Below, piece after piece: positions 21,928-28,064 of a DNA stretch of 64,000 nt. A program made the position numbers and the translations under genes. The notes under the pieces were generated by a model that was not told the DNA's origin, ran no database searches, and worked only from the letters and a program-made list of their open reading frames with translations. Source of the DNA: Bacteroidales bacterium (GTDB lineage: Bacteria; Bacteroidota; Bacteroidia; Bacteroidales; UBA7960); contig JAWLHS010000001.1 of the NCBI GenBank assembly GCA_041690235.1, positions 881 through 64,880 on the forward strand. The letters run 5' to 3'. The first letter of the stretch is position 1, and every line of letters starts with the position of its first letter.

Positions 21928-22383
21928 ATGAAGAAAAAAGGATTTTTGCTCGCATCTGTGATGATGTTGTCTGTCATGGCAATGGGGCAGGCAGGCCAGG
22001 TGGTCGGCTTTTGGCTGACCGGCGACAAGGACTCCCAGGTGGAGATCCTAAGAAAAACGGACAACAAATATTACGGCAGGATTGTATGGCTGGATGAACC
22101 GCTCAATGACGAGGGAAGGCCAAAAGTCGACGACAAGAATCCCGACAAGGCCAAGCATACCACCCCCCTCATCGGACTGGAAATCCTGAAGGGTTTTTCA
22201 TACAACGATTCGAAAAAGGAATGGGCCGGAGGAACCATCTATGATCCCCAGAACGGAAAAACGTACGACTGCTATATGTGGTTTGATGGCAACAACACCC
22301 TGAAAATCAAGGGATATGTCCTTGGCATGCGCTTTTTAGGCCGGGAAACCACCTGGACGCGCGAGGCCCGCAAGCGGGATTAA
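21928..22383 (+). CDS. DUF2147 domain-containing exported protein
   Basis: Signal peptide, then GFWLTGDKDSQVEI...YYGRIVWL and GGTIYDPQNGKTYDCYMWF...LKIKGY. I recognise this pattern as DUF2147. Confidence 0.75.
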   Translation: MKKKGFLLASVMMLSVMAMGQAGQVVGFWLTGDKDSQVEILRKTDNKYYGRIVWLDEPLNDEGRPKVDDKNPDKAKHTTPLIGLEILKGFSYNDSKKEWAGGTIYDPQNGKTYDCYMWFDGNNTLKIKGYVLGMRFLGRETTWTREARKRD

Positions 22384-22622
22384 ACACCTGAAAATACAGC
22401 CCCGGTTCCGGGGCGTACGATGGCGGACAATCGTGTCCGGCAAGGGACAATCTGTCGCCTGCCCAGAGCCCTTGTTGTCCATTTCAAAAAGCCTTTCTTG
22501 CTGACTCTTAATTTATTAACAACAACAGGCACACTTATTGTTGTATGCAATAAACACCAAGGGGCTTCCCGCCCCCGAATGTCCTTTTGCATGCATTTGT
22601 AACCCTTAAAAAACAACAAAAA

Positions 22623-23057
22623 ATGAGAACATTATTTACCATCGGGCTGCTTGCCTTGCTTCCGTTTATCGGTTTGGCCCAACAGGCGGATGAAAGCGCT
22701 GTAAAAAAAGTAATTACCCAGGCCTATATTGAGGGCATCCAGAACCAGGGCGACATTGAGGCTGTCCGACAAGGCTTTCACCCCGATTTTGAGATGCTGA
22801 TCAATCGCAACGGACAATTATCAAAGTTTCCCATCTCCGCCTGGATCGAACGCCTCGAACAAAGAAAAGCCAACCCATCCGGTTCCGCCCAGCCTCCTGT
22901 TAGCGGAAAGTTCCTGGATGTGAGCATTACGGGCAATGCAGCCATTGTTTCATTGGAACTGCACAGGGAAAACAAACTGATCTTTACCGACTACATATCA
23001 CTCTACAAGTTCGGATCCCAATGGAAGATTGTATCCAAAATTTACCACCAGCATTAA
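22623..23057 (+). CDS. NTF2-like / putative lumazine-binding family protein, exported
   Basis: ATG at 22623 (the track start at 22587 is TTG). Signal peptide MRTLFTIGLLALLPFIGLAQQ. The size and pattern are SnoaL/NTF2-like (VITQAYIEGIQNQGD..., FTDYISLYKFGSQWKIVSKIY). Confidence 0.6.
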   Translation: MRTLFTIGLLALLPFIGLAQQADESAVKKVITQAYIEGIQNQGDIEAVRQGFHPDFEMLINRNGQLSKFPISAWIERLEQRKANPSGSAQPPVSGKFLDVSITGNAAIVSLELHRENKLIFTDYISLYKFGSQWKIVSKIYHQH

Positions 23058-23116
23058 CGGGATGTCCAAGAGACAAAAGCAGAAAGCGGCCGGTAACAGG
23101 TTTTTGCCGGCCGCTT

Positions 23117-24004
23117 TTATTTTACAGCACGCAAAAACAAATTGACACCGATGGGTTCGGTAATCACAGTAGCCTTTCCCGATGGGATACCGGCCTGGTG
23201 CGCAAAGCCCAGCAGTTCCTCCTCAGATCGATGATATAAAAACCAATCACCAAGCACCTCCATGATCTTTCGGGATGGGTTTTCCACGTTGAAGTTGCCA
23301 ATAATCATTTCACCACCCGGACGAACATATTCATAGAATTTCTTTGCCAGGTATACAAAGTGTTTGTCCTTAAAATAGTCAAACAGCCCCGCACTCCAAA
23401 TCAAATCGTAAGACTTTTCCGGCATATACCGGATCACGTTCTTGTTTTCAAACCTTAAACAATGCAGGTAATCCCTGTTCTTGTTTTTGGCATAATCGAT
23501 GGCCCGCTGATCCAGGTCGATCAGGTCAAATACCAAATGGTTTTCCCCGACATCCCGGAGGTATTCATTGACCTCCGTGGCCGGTCCGCTGCCAAGAATT
23601 AAAACGGACTTTTGCCCTTCACCGGCCTTTTCATTTAACTGGTGTAATATTTCAATGGCCAGCTTCTTGCGATTTACAACGGCAATCACAGCCGGAAACC
23701 GGTGCGCAAATTCATCCCATTTCTTATACCTTGAATCTGAACTGATGTATTTCTGGTAGATTTTCTCAATAATAAAGAAATCCCCGCTATACCCAAATGG
23801 TTTTGAATAACAAAAGCCAATGATGCTTGCCGGTGTCAGAATAGGCTTCATTGCACGGCGGAATGCATCTATTTCATCCGCCTTGATCAGATCAACAAAC
23901 CCGAGCACTTCTTCATATTCATCGGGATCGGGTCCGTTTTTCTCGAACAACATATTGGCGAAGGTTTCCAATCCAATCGCATCAATACTTGACCTATTCT
24001 CCAT
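23117..24004 (-). CDS. class I SAM-dependent methyltransferase with an N-terminal extension
   Basis: ATG at 24004 (24007 is GTG). SAM-binding motif I is VLILGSGPATEV, followed by DLIDLD and LIWSAGLFDYF. The N-terminal region carries KPFGYSGDFFIIEKIY. Confidence 0.7.
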   Translation of the reverse strand: MENRSSIDAIGLETFANMLFEKNGPDPDEYEEVLGFVDLIKADEIDAFRRAMKPILTPASIIGFCYSKPFGYSGDFFIIEKIYQKYISSDSRYKKWDEFAHRFPAVIAVVNRKKLAIEILHQLNEKAGEGQKSVLILGSGPATEVNEYLRDVGENHLVFDLIDLDQRAIDYAKNKNRDYLHCLRFENKNVIRYMPEKSYDLIWSAGLFDYFKDKHFVYLAKKFYEYVRPGGEMIIGNFNVENPSRKIMEVLGDWFLYHRSEEELLGFAHQAGIPSGKATVITEPIGVNLFLRAVK

Positions 24005-24029
24005 CACTTGCGGGAATTATCGGCTTGGC

Positions 24030-24782
24030 CTAAATATTCATCTTTGACTCAAATGCTTCCTTGTACTCTTTCTCGACAATAATGACAGACATCTTGTCGG
24101 CAATAATGATCTCCGGGAATTTCGCGATAAAGATCTTGTCAAGGTTCACAATATGGTCGCGGCTTACCCTTACAAATTTTTCGGAAGGGAAGTGATTGGC
24201 AATCTCGTCAAGCGTACTCCGGATCAGAACGTTTTCGTTCCGCATGTGCGCCTTGCAGTTTTCCCCGCTTTGCTCTACAAAATATAAGTCGGGAAGCTTG
24301 ATCTTCTCCAACCCCTTGTCAGAGTCAACCATGATCAGTTCTTCACTTTCTTCGTTGAGCCTGAAAAATTTATTAAACTGGTCGCTCTCGATCCGGGATT
24401 TCAAATCGTTTTCAAATTTAAACCGGGCGATTTCAATGTTCGTTTGTAGTTCCTTTTCTGTGAAGGGTTTCAAAATATACCCGTAAGGCAGGGAAATTTT
24501 CGCCTTTTCGACCGTGGCAAAATCGGCATTGGCAGTCAGGTAAATAATCGGAACATTGTGCTTCTCCCCAATGATGGTTGCGGCTTCAATACCCGTCATC
24601 TCCCCTTTTAAAATGATATCCATTAAAATCAGGTCGGGCAGGTTTTTTTCCACCTCAGCGATGGCCGCCGGGCCGGTAGCAACCGTATTTTGCACTTTAT
24701 ACCCAATACTAATCAGGCTTTCTTCAATGTCTGCTGCAACAAGGAATTCATCCTCCACAACAAGAATATTTAATGCTGGCAT
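24030..24782 (-). CDS. LytR/AlgR-family response regulator (REC + LytTR DNA-binding domain)
   Basis: Receiver motifs ILVVEDEFLVA and LILMDIILKGEMTG. The LytTR-type C-terminus reads LYFVEQSGENCKAHMRNENVLIRSTLDEIANHFPSEKFVRVSRDHIVNLDKI. Confidence 0.9.
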   Translation of the reverse strand: MPALNILVVEDEFLVAADIEESLISIGYKVQNTVATGPAAIAEVEKNLPDLILMDIILKGEMTGIEAATIIGEKHNVPIIYLTANADFATVEKAKISLPYGYILKPFTEKELQTNIEIARFKFENDLKSRIESDQFNKFFRLNEESEELIMVDSDKGLEKIKLPDLYFVEQSGENCKAHMRNENVLIRSTLDEIANHFPSEKFVRVSRDHIVNLDKIFIAKFPEIIIADKMSVIIVEKEYKEAFESKMNI

Positions 24783-24793
24783 ATCTGGACTAA

Positions 24794-25852
24794 TTAGTTT
24801 TTAAATCGGATTGTGTATTTGGTTCCATTCGAAAAATCGTACTCAAGTGTTCCGTCAATCTGCTGGACAAGCTTGGAAACGATCCGCATGCCCAGAGAAT
24901 TGGAGCTTTCCAGGGTCCTGGTTCCATCCATCCCAACGCCGTCATCGGCGACATTCAGGGTAAATTCATTGCCATTCTGAATGCCCAGCTGGATGGAAAT
25001 TTTTCCCCCATCCCGGCCCTTGAAGGCATGCTTAAAGGAGTTAGAGATTAACTCGTTGATAATAAGACCACAGGGAATTCCGACGTCAATCGGGAGAAAT
25101 ACATCCTCTATGTCATAATCAAAAGTGACTTTCCCCTGAAGATCGGAATAGGTCCTGGACAAATTATTGGTCAGACTCTGCACGTAATTGCCAAATTTAA
25201 TATTGGCCAGGGTTTCATTACGGTAAAGGTTTTCATGGATCAAAGCCATCGAACGGATTCTGTTCTGGCTCTCCCCCAGAACGGTCTTCAGCCTGGGATC
25301 ATCAACCAGGCGCTCCTGCATTTTCAGGATGCTGGATATGATCTGCATATTGTTCTTCACCCTGTGATGCACTTCCTTGAGCAGAATATCTTTTTCGGCA
25401 AGGGACTTTTTCAGATTGGATTCCGCAATGCTCCTTTTAAGTTCTTTTTCCTCCAGGGCCTTTTCCATCAATATATTCCCGGCGAGTTCATCAATCAGGC
25501 CATATAGTTTTTTCGGATCAACGGGTTTCACCAGGTAACCGTTTACTCCCAGGTTAATGGCCTCCAGAAAGTATTCCTTAATACTGTATGCCGACATGAC
25601 GATCACATTCACCTCGGGGTCAAATTCCTTGATGTTACGGATCATCTCCAGGCCGTTCATAATGGGCATGCTGATGTCGGTAATGACCAGATCGGGCTTA
25701 TGCTCCTTGTAAATCTCCAACCCTTCCTGCCCGTTTTCGGCAACAAAAAATTGCTGAACCCTCTTGGATAAGCGGCGCTGGTATAAGGCCCGGATGGTTT
25801 CGTTATCCTCGACGAACAGCAGGGATATTTGATGGGCTTGAATCTCTTCCAT
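24794..25852 (-). CDS. response-regulator receiver fused to a HisKA_2-type histidine kinase
   Basis: ATG at 25852 (MEEIQ...) avoids overlap with the upstream gene. Receiver motifs LLFVEDNETIRA and LVITDISMPIMNG. The HisKA_2 H-box is EVHHRVKNNMQIISSIL. ATPase motifs are INELISNSFKHAF and VADDGVGMD. Confidence 0.85.
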   Translation of the reverse strand: MEEIQAHQISLLFVEDNETIRALYQRRLSKRVQQFFVAENGQEGLEIYKEHKPDLVITDISMPIMNGLEMIRNIKEFDPEVNVIVMSAYSIKEYFLEAINLGVNGYLVKPVDPKKLYGLIDELAGNILMEKALEEKELKRSIAESNLKKSLAEKDILLKEVHHRVKNNMQIISSILKMQERLVDDPRLKTVLGESQNRIRSMALIHENLYRNETLANIKFGNYVQSLTNNLSRTYSDLQGKVTFDYDIEDVFLPIDVGIPCGLIINELISNSFKHAFKGRDGGKISIQLGIQNGNEFTLNVADDGVGMDGTRTLESSNSLGMRIVSKLVQQIDGTLEYDFSNGTKYTIRFKN

Positions 25853-25865
25853 GTATTCTGTTGGT

Positions 25866-27752
25866 TTAAGCCTCTTTTTCTGAATCAATGTATTGCGAGA
25901 TCAACTCAATAAAATCTTTAATATTAAATGGTTTGGCGATATAGTCGGTACAACCGGCCTCAATACTCTTTTCCCTGTCTCCATCCATGGCATATGATGT
26001 CTGGGCGATCACAGGCACATCGGGACGGATTTTCCGGATGAGCGGGGTGGCTTCAAACCCACTCATTACCGGCATTCTGACATCCATCAGGATCAAATCA
26101 ATTTCTTGCTCCTTCTTACATTCTGCAACAGCTTCCTGTCCGTTCTTTGCCCAGATCAGTGTAACACCGGTCTTCTTCAGGGCTGTCTTAATCAGTAAGA
26201 AGTTAGTGGTTACGTCCTCCGCGACGAGAATCACTTTGTCTTTCCAGTTGAAATCCATTGGAATATTGATTTTAGAATGTCGTTTAATGGTGCTGCGATC
26301 ATCCTTGTTTATAGGAAGGGTAAAGCAGAATACAGAGCCTTGTCCCATGTCACTCTCCACCCAGATATCCCCCCCGAACAAGTTCACAAAAGCTTTGGAA
26401 ATGGCCAGGCCAAGACCTGTTCCTTCATGCTTGGGCCGGTGATCGATGGTGGCCTGCATGAAGCGTTCAAAAATGTATTGTTGTTGCTCATAATCAAGGC
26501 CAACCCCTGTATCCTTGACATAGAACACCAGAAACTCCTCATGCACGGCATACCCCACCTCCACATATCCCTGGTAAGTAAATTTACAGGCATTGCCCAC
26601 CAGGTTAATCAGGACCTGCTTTAACCGGGTACGGTCTGAGATCAGAATATCATTCCCCTTCTCAAGACTGTAATTGCTCCGGAGTTCGAAGCGGCGTCCG
26701 CTAACCTGGTTGTCTTTCAGCAACAACTCATTGACCTCGTCCAATAACTCATTGATGGAAAACTCATTGGAACTCAACGAGAGCATTCCCGCTTCAACCT
26801 TGGAAATGTCAATAATGTCATTGATCAGTGCAAGCAAATGATTGCCGTTTTTATTGATGACCTCAATGAATTCTTTTAACTCCTCTTTGTCTTCCGTTTC
26901 CAGAAGAAGTTGCGAGAATCCCAGAATTCCATTCATGGGGGTACGGATCTCATGACTCATATTGGCCAGGAAAGCAGATTTTAGTTTGTCTGATTGCTCA
27001 GCCCTTTCCTTGGCTTCGTTCAGCTGGCTGGTGCGTTCCCTGACCTTGCGCTCGAGGGTGCGATTGGCTTCTTCCACTTCCGCCTTCCTTTTATCGAGCT
27101 GCTTGTTCAGGAAAAAGTCGCGCCGGGCAAAATATTCAATGTTGTAGGCGGCAAACATCCCGATCAGGTTGGCCGAAACGAAAAAAAAGTTGTTATTGAT
27201 AATCACCAAAGCCCCCGTCTCTGAATAGAAAATAGCACCGATATTGTAAATGGCCAGGATGAGCCAGCCGCCAAGGGTGGCCATCAAAAAACGAAGTTTA
27301 ATGAAGAAATAACCGGCCGTAAACACCAGCATGACCCCGCCGTAATAAGCATAATAATCCGGCACCAATACAAGCATCAGACTAATTCCGGCTCCTCCCA
27401 GCACAAAGGAAATAAACACCAGAAGCTGCCAGACATTTCTGAAAAACTTAAAAAAGGAAAAGATCAGCACCAGGAAGAGGAATGGGACGACCACCCCGAA
27501 CCTGACTATGAAAAACACTTCCTGGTACATGGGTACAACCATGGAGTCGAGCAAGCCAAAGACCCCGTAAAGGGCCGCAAGCAAAACAAAGGACACCCGA
27601 AACTGAACCAGGGAATCGCGGAAATATTTTGACAAAAACTCATTTTCCCGTCCATCACGGAATGCAAGGGTAATGGGATTCAGGTTCATGCGCCTGGTCC
27701 CGGGAACCTCCTTGGTATTGTCTGATGACAGGTTGGGAGTATGCTGCTTCAT
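25866..27752 (-). CDS. hybrid sensor histidine kinase (multi-TM sensor, HisKA, HATPase_c, C-terminal receiver)
   Basis: The first ATG is at 27752 (27776 is TTG). About six TM helices and a coiled coil precede the H-box [19 protein letters not shown]. ATPase motifs are [17 protein letters not shown] and [10 protein letters not shown]. The receiver shows [10 protein letters not shown] and [13 protein letters not shown]. Confidence 0.85.
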
Positions 27753-28064
27753 CAAAGCGATTAAAAGTGGGTCCAAAATACGTAATTCCGGCTAATTGCA
27801 GCACAAAAAAAACGTATTTCTTACTATTAATTCTTAGAGGTATACGCAGAATCCCTTTCGAGGTTATGGATGCTTTGTCTTTTTTTCCAAAAGACGTTTT
27901 TTCTTCATTTTTCCAACGATCGGTTGACCCACAGCCTCCGGGATCCAAGGGCCATTGAGGAGTCCAGCCGGGCAGGAACCGACCAACCACCCATCCCACA
28001 AAAAACAAGCTGCGGGTGATGCCGTTTTACTTACCTTTACCAGGTTTTTAAAACTGGTTTTTCG

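Follow-up and report, generated by a model that had tools for sequence, protein, structure and literature searches.

In the literature searched, Phc signaling has been described only in Ralstonia and Cupriavidus; it is built on a signal synthase, PhcB, that produces methyl 3-hydroxymyristate and is encoded beside its receptor, PhcS (PMC8578825). Published sizes are 464-468 amino acids (aa) for PhcB, 368-374 aa for PhcR and 336-337 aa for PhcQ, with none given for PhcS (PMC8578825), and Cupriavidus is reported to possess a complete phcBSRQ system with 56-75% identity to that of R. solanacearum GMI1000 (PMC2842291). Here, we describe a four-gene cassette in a 64,000-nucleotide (nt) stretch of DNA from a Bacteroidales bacterium (GenBank assembly GCA_041690235.1, contig JAWLHS010000001.1, positions 881 to 64,880 of the forward strand; the whole stretch is hereafter termed the window), which encodes a hybrid histidine kinase, a receiver (REC) domain fused to a HisKA_2-type kinase core, a REC-LytTR response regulator and an S-adenosylmethionine (SAM)-dependent methyltransferase (MTase). 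With a confidence slightly better than even, we read these four genes as one signaling module constructed on the same synthase-receptor pair as the Phc systems of Ralstonia and Cupriavidus. An initial annotation of this DNA had proposed a Phc-like methyl-ester circuit from gene architecture; the analyses presented below support that proposal and extend the link beyond architecture, through homology of the methyltransferase to PhcB, the relatedness of the kinase sensor domain to that of PhcS, and co-conservation of the genes. We know of no established self-made autoinducer system in the Bacteroidota, and our literature searches returned no description of a PhcB-related system in this phylum.

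The comparison with Phc begins with the methyltransferase. In Pfam, the protein matches Methyltransf_25, Methyltransf_12 and Methyltransf_11 at residues 134-235, leaving over an N-terminal extension of ~125 aa; the scores for Methyltransf_25 (35 bits, gathering cut-off 27) and Methyltransf_11 (23.1 bits, cut-off 21.2) lie above threshold, and that for Methyltransf_12 (29.9 bits) falls just at its cut-off of 30. The protein is laid out as a helical N-terminal lid domain (residues ~1-127, with the motif KPFGYSGDF) followed by a Rossmann-fold SAM-binding core with the glycine-rich motif I expected of class I SAM-dependent methyltransferases; motifs of this core are LILGSGP, DLIDLD, SAGLFDYFKDK and NPSRKIME, and an AlphaFold model (pLDDT 85) shows it as an alternating beta/alpha fold. 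Among 5.8 billion proteins searched, 2099 homologs were found, the best 120 of which are 60-98% identical to the window protein; the few of these 120 that carry an organism name derive from metagenome-assembled genomes (MAGs) of Bacteroidales, Bacteroidota or Sphingobacteriia. Many homologs bear the JGI name ‘extracellular factor (EF) 3-hydroxypalmitic acid methyl ester biosynthesis protein’, and because automated annotation already uses the PhcB name in this way, similarity to PhcB at the level of the gene is not new. In an alignment of 25 homologs (A1), the N-terminal extension is conserved as strongly as the catalytic core and includes the sequence KPFGY(S/N)GDFFIIEK; the KPFGYSGDFFIIEKIY motif that had been assigned to this extension in the initial annotation is present and nearly invariant in all 25.

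For comparisons with Phc, we used proteins of Cupriavidus, Massilia and Paraburkholderia, and none were made with a Ralstonia sequence itself. The Cupriavidus and Massilia loci (L011 and L012) encode, in order, an MTase of 463 or 474 aa, a MASE8-HisKA-HATPase kinase of 443 or 447 aa, a REC-HisKA-HATPase protein of 381 or 373 aa and a REC protein of 332 or 327 aa. The MTases of these loci were taken as PhcB orthologs because of the gene sizes, which agree with the published values for PhcB, PhcR and PhcQ, the published Cupriavidus system (PMC2842291), and the translation of an OE1-1 phcB quantitative PCR primer, YKIKHYLD (residues 172-179), which corresponds to TKVKTYLD (residues 171-178) in Cupriavidus. 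A tblastn search of plasmids yielded a third reference, a Paraburkholderia graminis locus (L003) in which the gene for a 468-aa MTase precedes those for a kinase of 445 aa, a receiver and a second receiver protein, of 344 aa; its MTase is 64-70% identical to the 463-474-aa proteins of Cupriavidus, Massilia, Janthinobacterium and Pseudoduganella. This phcBSRQ-like cluster is carried on a conjugative 494-kb plasmid, pPHS1_P, and the gene in the phcR position (L003 9223-9627) encodes only a 134-aa receiver without a kinase part. The published OE1-1 primer TGGCCGAAAAGAACGAGCAGCTG was also tried as a probe for phc loci and was set aside, having matched two contigs (L001 and L002) whose layout of open reading frames (ORFs) is not that of phcBSRQ.

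In BLASTP, the window MTase aligns with the P. graminis enzyme at 28% identity over 288 aa (E 1e-31), residues 28-294 of the former pairing with 178-461 of the latter and KPFGYSGDF with KPLGYAGDY, and it aligns with Cupriavidus PhcB (P0327) at E 7e-25. Comparison of alignment A1 with a PhcB alignment by hhalign gave a probability of 99.7% (E 1.3e-25) over 245 columns, and the motifs KP[FL]GY.GD[FY], G.GP..E, AGLFDY..DK and NP.+..ME...W.L..R are common to both. These alignments identify the window MTase as a homolog of the catalytic part of PhcB (the C-terminal ~285 residues), and PhcB as its nearest characterized relative. The initial annotation had been unable to verify this homology and had allowed that the enzyme might instead group with unrelated methyltransferase families; the homology was found, and such grouping was not. 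The NCBIfam models for BioC (22 bits against an equivalog cut-off of 185) and trans-aconitate methyltransferase (16 bits against 297) scored far below threshold, as did the SAM-binding domain of CheR in Pfam (17.4 bits against 27, with no match to CheR_N), and those two were the only NCBIfam models hit by the enzyme, with nothing at E <= 0.01 among models for ubiquinone/menaquinone (UbiE/UbiG-type) or tRNA methyltransferases. In the preceding comparison, the two NCBIfam models meant are BioC and trans-aconitate methyltransferase. A fold search of the PDB returned no characterized close structural relative: the best match was 3ocj, a Bordetella protein of unknown function, and the others were mostly natural-product O- and C-methyltransferases at 13-17% identity and low TM-scores.

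A second line of evidence concerns the sensor domain of the hybrid kinase. This protein has HisKA, HATPase_c and C-terminal REC domains in Pfam, an H-box of the sequence MSHEIRTP and, from its hydropathy profile, some six hydrophobic stretches within residues 50-205, linked by very short loops. Precomputed Pfam matches place a MASE8 domain, mentioned only in passing in the literature, both on homologous Bacteroidota kinases (44-74% identical in the sensor region) and on PhcS. An hhalign comparison of five Bacteroidota sensor domains with three PhcS domains gave an E value of 3e-5 and a collinear alignment over 180 columns, and a hidden Markov model (HMM) of 55 kinase N-termini, searched against 1836 ORFs with filters off (--max), matched the PhcS N-termini at 7e-11, 2e-9 and 7e-3, with the best unrelated ORF at 0.039. 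By profile comparison and precomputed matches, the PhcB-like MTase is thus accompanied by an adjacent kinase with a PhcS-type (MASE8) membrane domain, and we consider with moderate confidence that the two sensor domains are related.

The two remaining proteins resemble their Phc counterparts more loosely. The receiver-kinase contains REC (E 3e-28), HisKA_2 (E 6e-29) and HATPase_c domains and the H-box HHRVKNN; its best NCBIfam model is PhyK (E 2e-38, 132 bits against an equivalog cut-off of 750), and it is likely the middle step of a phosphorelay, acting as a REC-switched kinase or as a phosphotransferase. The response regulator, presumed to be the transcriptional output of the cassette, has REC (E 4e-19) and LytTR (E 3e-11) domains, and its receiver is closest to the PhyR-family receiver model (E 4e-21, 76 bits against a cut-off of 240). 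The PhyK-like core of the one and the PhyR-family-like receiver of the other suggest that the two are cognate partners. In the translations, the signaling proteins have intact H-box and receiver Asp motifs, and the domain make-up described for the four proteins in the initial annotation is borne out by Pfam. The parallels that it drew with the unusual kinase-like regulator and the further receiver protein of Phc hold in part: the domain order of the receiver-kinase is that of PhcR, but its dimerization and histidine phosphotransfer (DHp) domain belongs to the HisKA_2 and not the HisKA family, and the additional receiver protein of the cassette is a LytTR regulator without a Phc counterpart. 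With PhcR, only the REC domains of the receiver-kinase align (25% identity, E 8e-10). From these comparisons, the receiver-kinase and the LytTR regulator are best described as analogs, not orthologs, of PhcR and PhcQ. A connection with anti-phage defense was also considered and rejected: the MTase gave only a weak, generic match to PADLOC mad2, the LytTR regulator gave a weak partial match to PDC-M60B (E 1e-4, residues 1-58), and neither kinase protein gave any match.

The four genes also travel together. In three look-ups, homologs 61-73% identical to the MTase were each found in a four-gene set with the content and order of the cassette, within at least three different flanking contexts (one set syntenic with the window and two sets unrelated to it). 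A metagenome scan yielded 80 loci, and screening of these by tblastn resolved a clade 1 of 30 loci (MTase 59-69% identical to that of the window) and a clade 2 of 49 loci (42-48% identical). Among the clade-1 loci with sufficient sequence, as read by hand from the tblastn table, the LytTR gene lies directly upstream of the MTase gene in 25/25, and the HisKA_2 and MASE8 kinase genes occupy the same order in 20/20 and 16/16, respectively. No fifth conserved gene emerged from all-against-all ORF clustering, in which only four gene families were conserved across 35 loci. The four-gene arrangement is not a product of chance, and the synteny check of the MTase with the kinases, which the initial annotation had put forward as a way of probing its proposal, revealed strict co-conservation. 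Clade 2 has a different arrangement, in which the MTase gene is followed by genes for a MASE8 hybrid kinase (membrane domain 32-44% identical to that of the window) and a stand-alone REC protein; the kinase gene follows the MTase gene in 38 of the ~43 loci with sufficient downstream DNA, and this order is that of phcB-phcS. In a contig of a Smithella MAG (L093 2107-6888), a MASE8-PAS-GGDEF diguanylate cyclase, whose sensor matches the 55-domain HMM at 2e-83, is encoded directly upstream of a family MTase, which argues that the MTase-MASE8 pair persists while the output module changes. Neighboring genes on the Smithella contig encode an AMP-dependent ligase, an ApeP-like protein, a ketoreductase and LolA. 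Two further loci depart from these patterns: in one (L040, MTase 53% identical), a MASE8 kinase gene lies upstream but LytTR and HisKA_2 genes are absent, and another of 16.8 kb (L088) has no MASE8 gene near its MTase gene.

The wider MTase family offers an indication of substrate. When 1.84 billion cluster representatives were searched with the MTase profile, 4780 clusters were recovered at E <= 1e-3, and the longer members include fusions with ketoacyl-ACP synthase (KAS) III (twice, in both orders) and acyl-CoA dehydrogenase (twice, one of them also with a phosphopantetheine acyl carrier protein (ACP) domain), as well as with PilZ, AraC and HTH_3 domains; P0198, for example, consists of AraC HTH domains fused to a family MTase. 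An Enterobacter ludwigii IncFII plasmid (L004 6640-9777) encodes a trans-acyltransferase-like polyketide synthase (PKS), composed of a ketosynthase, a linker, an ACP and an MTase, whose terminal MTase domain is ~30% identical to the window enzyme. Another locus (L094 5034-8237) has three consecutive genes, whose products are an AraC regulator, a family MTase of 393 aa and a fatty-acid desaturase. The KAS III, acyl-CoA dehydrogenase, ACP and PKS fusions, together with the desaturase neighbor, point to a family that acts on fatty-acyl substrates, in line with PhcB chemistry. The plasmid that carries the PKS gene is conjugative, and the gene adjoins Tn3-family transposase genes.

On the basis of these features, a circuit can be envisioned in which the PhcB-homologous MTase would use SAM to methylate a fatty-acid-derived carboxylate, most plausibly that of a 3-hydroxy fatty acyl intermediate. 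Bacteroidota synthesize large amounts of such intermediates for lipid A and amino-lipids. The resulting methyl ester would be hydrophobic, diffusible or volatile, and would enter membranes, where the loop-less, six-transmembrane (TM) MASE8 domain of the hybrid kinase would sense it. Ligand binding would shift the kinase/phosphatase balance and thereby the flow of phosphoryl groups, which would reach the REC-LytTR regulator by way of the REC-HisKA_2 protein, with the latter working either as a second, receiver-activated kinase or as a phosphotransferase like ChpT; the regulator would in turn alter transcription. The operon that encodes these signaling proteins ends with the synthase gene, which makes positive autoregulation likely, and the autoinduced output would presumably depend on cell density.

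Several of our results weigh against so close an alignment with Phc. The 295-aa MTase lacks the N-terminal ~177 residues of PhcB, so that the full-length PhcB architecture is absent, and it is only ~27-28% identical to PhcB, a distance at which substrate specificity can change. The cassette encodes neither a PhcR ortholog of the REC-HisKA-HATPase_c type nor an ortholog of PhcQ, whose homologs show only a REC match where the third gene here encodes REC-LytTR; a PhcA-type LysR gene was found neither within nor beside the cassette, in the window or in related loci. Pfam analysis of the four proteins identified no Hpt partner for the hybrid kinase. With regard to the sensor, hmmscan found no MASE8 match on the N-terminus of the window kinase even at E 10, a miss that may be due to the HMMER speed and bias filters (the Paraburkholderia PhcS-like protein itself gave a sub-threshold match at E 8e-4), and BLASTP of the window and PhcS-type sensor domains alone was not significant; because of these two nulls, the homology rests on the profile methods and precomputed matches. 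LytTR direct-repeat boxes, which the initial annotation had suggested seeking upstream of 27752, did not rise above shuffled controls: at 19-24-nt spacing, the best 10-mer direct repeats of the window and of 14 related loci scored no higher than those of shuffled sequence. All close homologs of the cassette come from metagenomes or MAGs. Finally, co-conservation of the MTase and MASE8 genes is equally compatible with a sensor that detects the substrate of the enzyme instead of its product.

This last point underlies what we view as a doubtful but serious competing account, in which the input to the MASE8 kinase is a free fatty acid or the lipid state of the membrane, whether exogenous or self-made, and the LytTR regulator induces the operon so that the MTase, as effector, esterifies the acid to detoxify, neutralize or remodel it. 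The MTase gene stands last in the operon, a position typical of a regulated effector, family members occur with fatty-acid enzymes and AraC regulators and no kinase, and a sensor embedded in the membrane would detect the lipid substrate just as readily as the product. Yet the MTase-MASE8 pair persists with outputs that are not transcriptional, namely the lone REC of clade 2 and the GGDEF domain of Smithella, which is hard to reconcile with the MTase as a mere regulated output, and the sole characterized relative, PhcB, is a signal synthase encoded beside the receptor PhcS (PMC8578825). Two other enzymatic roles appear considerably less probable. It is improbable that the MTase tailors a non-signaling product of a secondary-metabolite or lipid pathway under control of the adjacent multi-step two-component system: the natural-product methyltransferases that predominate among the PDB fold matches, and the family member that forms the terminal domain of a PKS, are what one would expect of such an enzyme, but those structural matches are distant in identity and TM-score, apart from the protein of unknown function, and no biosynthetic genes are conserved beside the cassette, as only the four genes recur and the flanks vary. 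Still more remote, to the point that we give it hardly any credence, is a protein methyltransferase that acts on a signaling protein in the manner of CheR-dependent kinase adaptation. The weak Pfam match to the CheR SAM-binding domain (E 0.003, 17 bits) and the co-location with sensory proteins would fit this role; the score, however, is below the 27-bit cut-off and covers only the generic Rossmann part, the cassette has no CheB, CheW or MCP gene, and the KAS III, acyl-CoA dehydrogenase, ACP and PKS fusions as well as the PhcB homology point instead to acyl substrates.

A broader and more tentative proposition, which we hold at clearly less than even confidence, is that the PhcB-like MTase and the MASE8 receptor form an ancient and widespread synthase-receptor pair, with MASE8 a dedicated receptor for fatty-acid methyl esters. 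Bacteroidota would then carry out true quorum sensing through LytTR, with esters derived from their characteristic 3-hydroxy (iso-branched) fatty acids; the pair would also operate in Desulfobacterota (Smithella) and in a large clade from environmental metagenomes, and in other lineages it would control cyclic di-GMP synthesis or lone receivers.

The coordinates of the cassette are collected in Table 1. The ORF listing bears out a four-gene minus-strand operon with gaps of 13, 11 and 25 nt between the co-directional genes when ATG starts are used, as the initial annotation had stated. Slightly longer alternative starts exist for the kinase (TTG at 27776), the receiver-kinase (TTG or GTG at 25888) and the MTase (GTG at 24007); the homologs in a related locus (L005) are 628, 352, 250 and 296 aa in length, in agreement with the ATG starts of the first three genes.

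Table 1. Genes of the cassette and the upstream intergenic region, in window coordinates
Feature	Position	Strand	Remarks
Hybrid sensor histidine kinase, 628 aa	25866..27752	(-)	ATG at 27752; ORF 25866..27776
REC-HisKA_2-HATPase_c protein, 352 aa	24794..25852	(-)	ATG at 25852; ORF 24794..25888
REC-LytTR response regulator, 250 aa	24030..24782	(-)	ATG at 24782
PhcB-like class I SAM-dependent methyltransferase (MTase), 295 aa	23117..24004	(-)	ATG at 24004; ORF 23117..24007
Intergenic region between the operon and a divergently transcribed pnuC-like gene	27753..28064		Presumed promoter location

Within the upstream region, a block of ~60 nt (27812-27872) is conserved with L005 and the remainder differs. 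This block contains ATAACCTC-N14-ATACCTC in a 22-nt register, which is not significant against shuffles, and it may be regarded as a weak candidate for a LytTR site. Scans for sigma-70 promoters and terminators were at chance level, such scans being ill-suited to Bacteroidota promoters.

Additional features of the surroundings merit mention. The G+C content is 44-47% across 22001-28000, which contains the cassette, compared with ~50-55% in most of the window; this low value and the differing flanks among lineages are compatible with lateral mobility. A gene on the plus strand (22587-23057), convergent with that of the MTase, encodes a secreted 156-aa protein of the Lumazine_bd_2 family (PF12893, NTF2-like). 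A gene of this family adjoins or lies near the cassette in L005/L006 and L007/L008 and is not present in L009, and its product may be an accessory with a loose tie to the cassette, such as a protein that binds or hydrolyzes a hydrophobic molecule, or a coincidental neighbor. In L005/L006, a PDZ/alpha-beta-hydrolase gene is located between the pnuC-like gene and the kinase gene (region compared, L005 2768-4153); the window instead has a 312-nt spacer with a G+C-rich stretch at this position (27753-28064).

Bacteroidota may thus possess their own fatty-acid methyl-ester signaling system, and what appears to be undescribed is the four-gene cassette, the common sensor domain, and the rewiring to LytTR, lone-REC and GGDEF outputs across phyla. 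If this reading is correct, the Bacteroidota, which are abundant in sediments, digesters and guts, would gain a dedicated system of self-produced small-molecule signaling, a candidate class of ligands could be assigned to the orphan MASE8 sensor domain, and a single synthase-receptor pair would be seen to have been rewired to a LytTR factor, a lone receiver, a diguanylate cyclase or PhcR/PhcQ/PhcA.

Among known systems, the PhyK-PhyR type of HisKA_2/HWE kinase pair of the Alphaproteobacteria provides the best-scoring models for the HisKA_2 kinase core and the LytTR receiver; the cassette nevertheless differs in having no anti-anti-sigma domain, NepR or EcfG, in taking its input through a receiver domain and in directing its output through LytTR. 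The Agr, ComCDE and Fsr systems of Firmicutes likewise combine a multi-TM kinase and a LytTR regulator with a putative signal-producing gene, a resemblance in gene set that makes autoregulation plausible for the cassette. No peptide precursor or processing/export gene was found, however, among the ORFs of the cassette or the gene families across the 35 loci, and the intergenic distances of 11-25 nt are too short to accommodate one. AgrC-like kinases have an HPK10-type domain, whereas the DHp domain of the window kinase is HisKA in Pfam; moreover, an extra receiver-kinase is inserted in the cassette, and its signal is a putative lipid ester. In logic, a parallel is found in the alpha-hydroxyketone systems, CqsA/CqsS of Vibrio and LqsA/LqsS of Legionella, in which one enzyme generates a hydrophobic, fatty-acyl-derived autoinducer and an adjacent kinase bears a six-TM domain with almost no periplasmic loops. 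The likeness claimed is one of logic; the CqsA/LqsA synthase is a pyridoxal phosphate-dependent acyl-CoA transferase and not a methyltransferase.

Phc itself differs from the cassette in several respects: the window kinase is a hybrid with a C-terminal REC domain and PhcS is not, the receiver-kinase has HisKA_2 where PhcR has HisKA, PhcQ has no counterpart to the LytTR DNA-binding domain of the last regulator and Phc output proceeds via the LysR protein PhcA, the MTase gene is last instead of first, and the host phylum is Bacteroidota rather than the order Burkholderiales. What the two have in common is a PhcB-homologous MTase encoded beside a kinase with a MASE8-type integral-membrane sensor, to which both add a soluble receiver-kinase and a further receiver protein, and in both the genes are arranged as a single co-directional operon.

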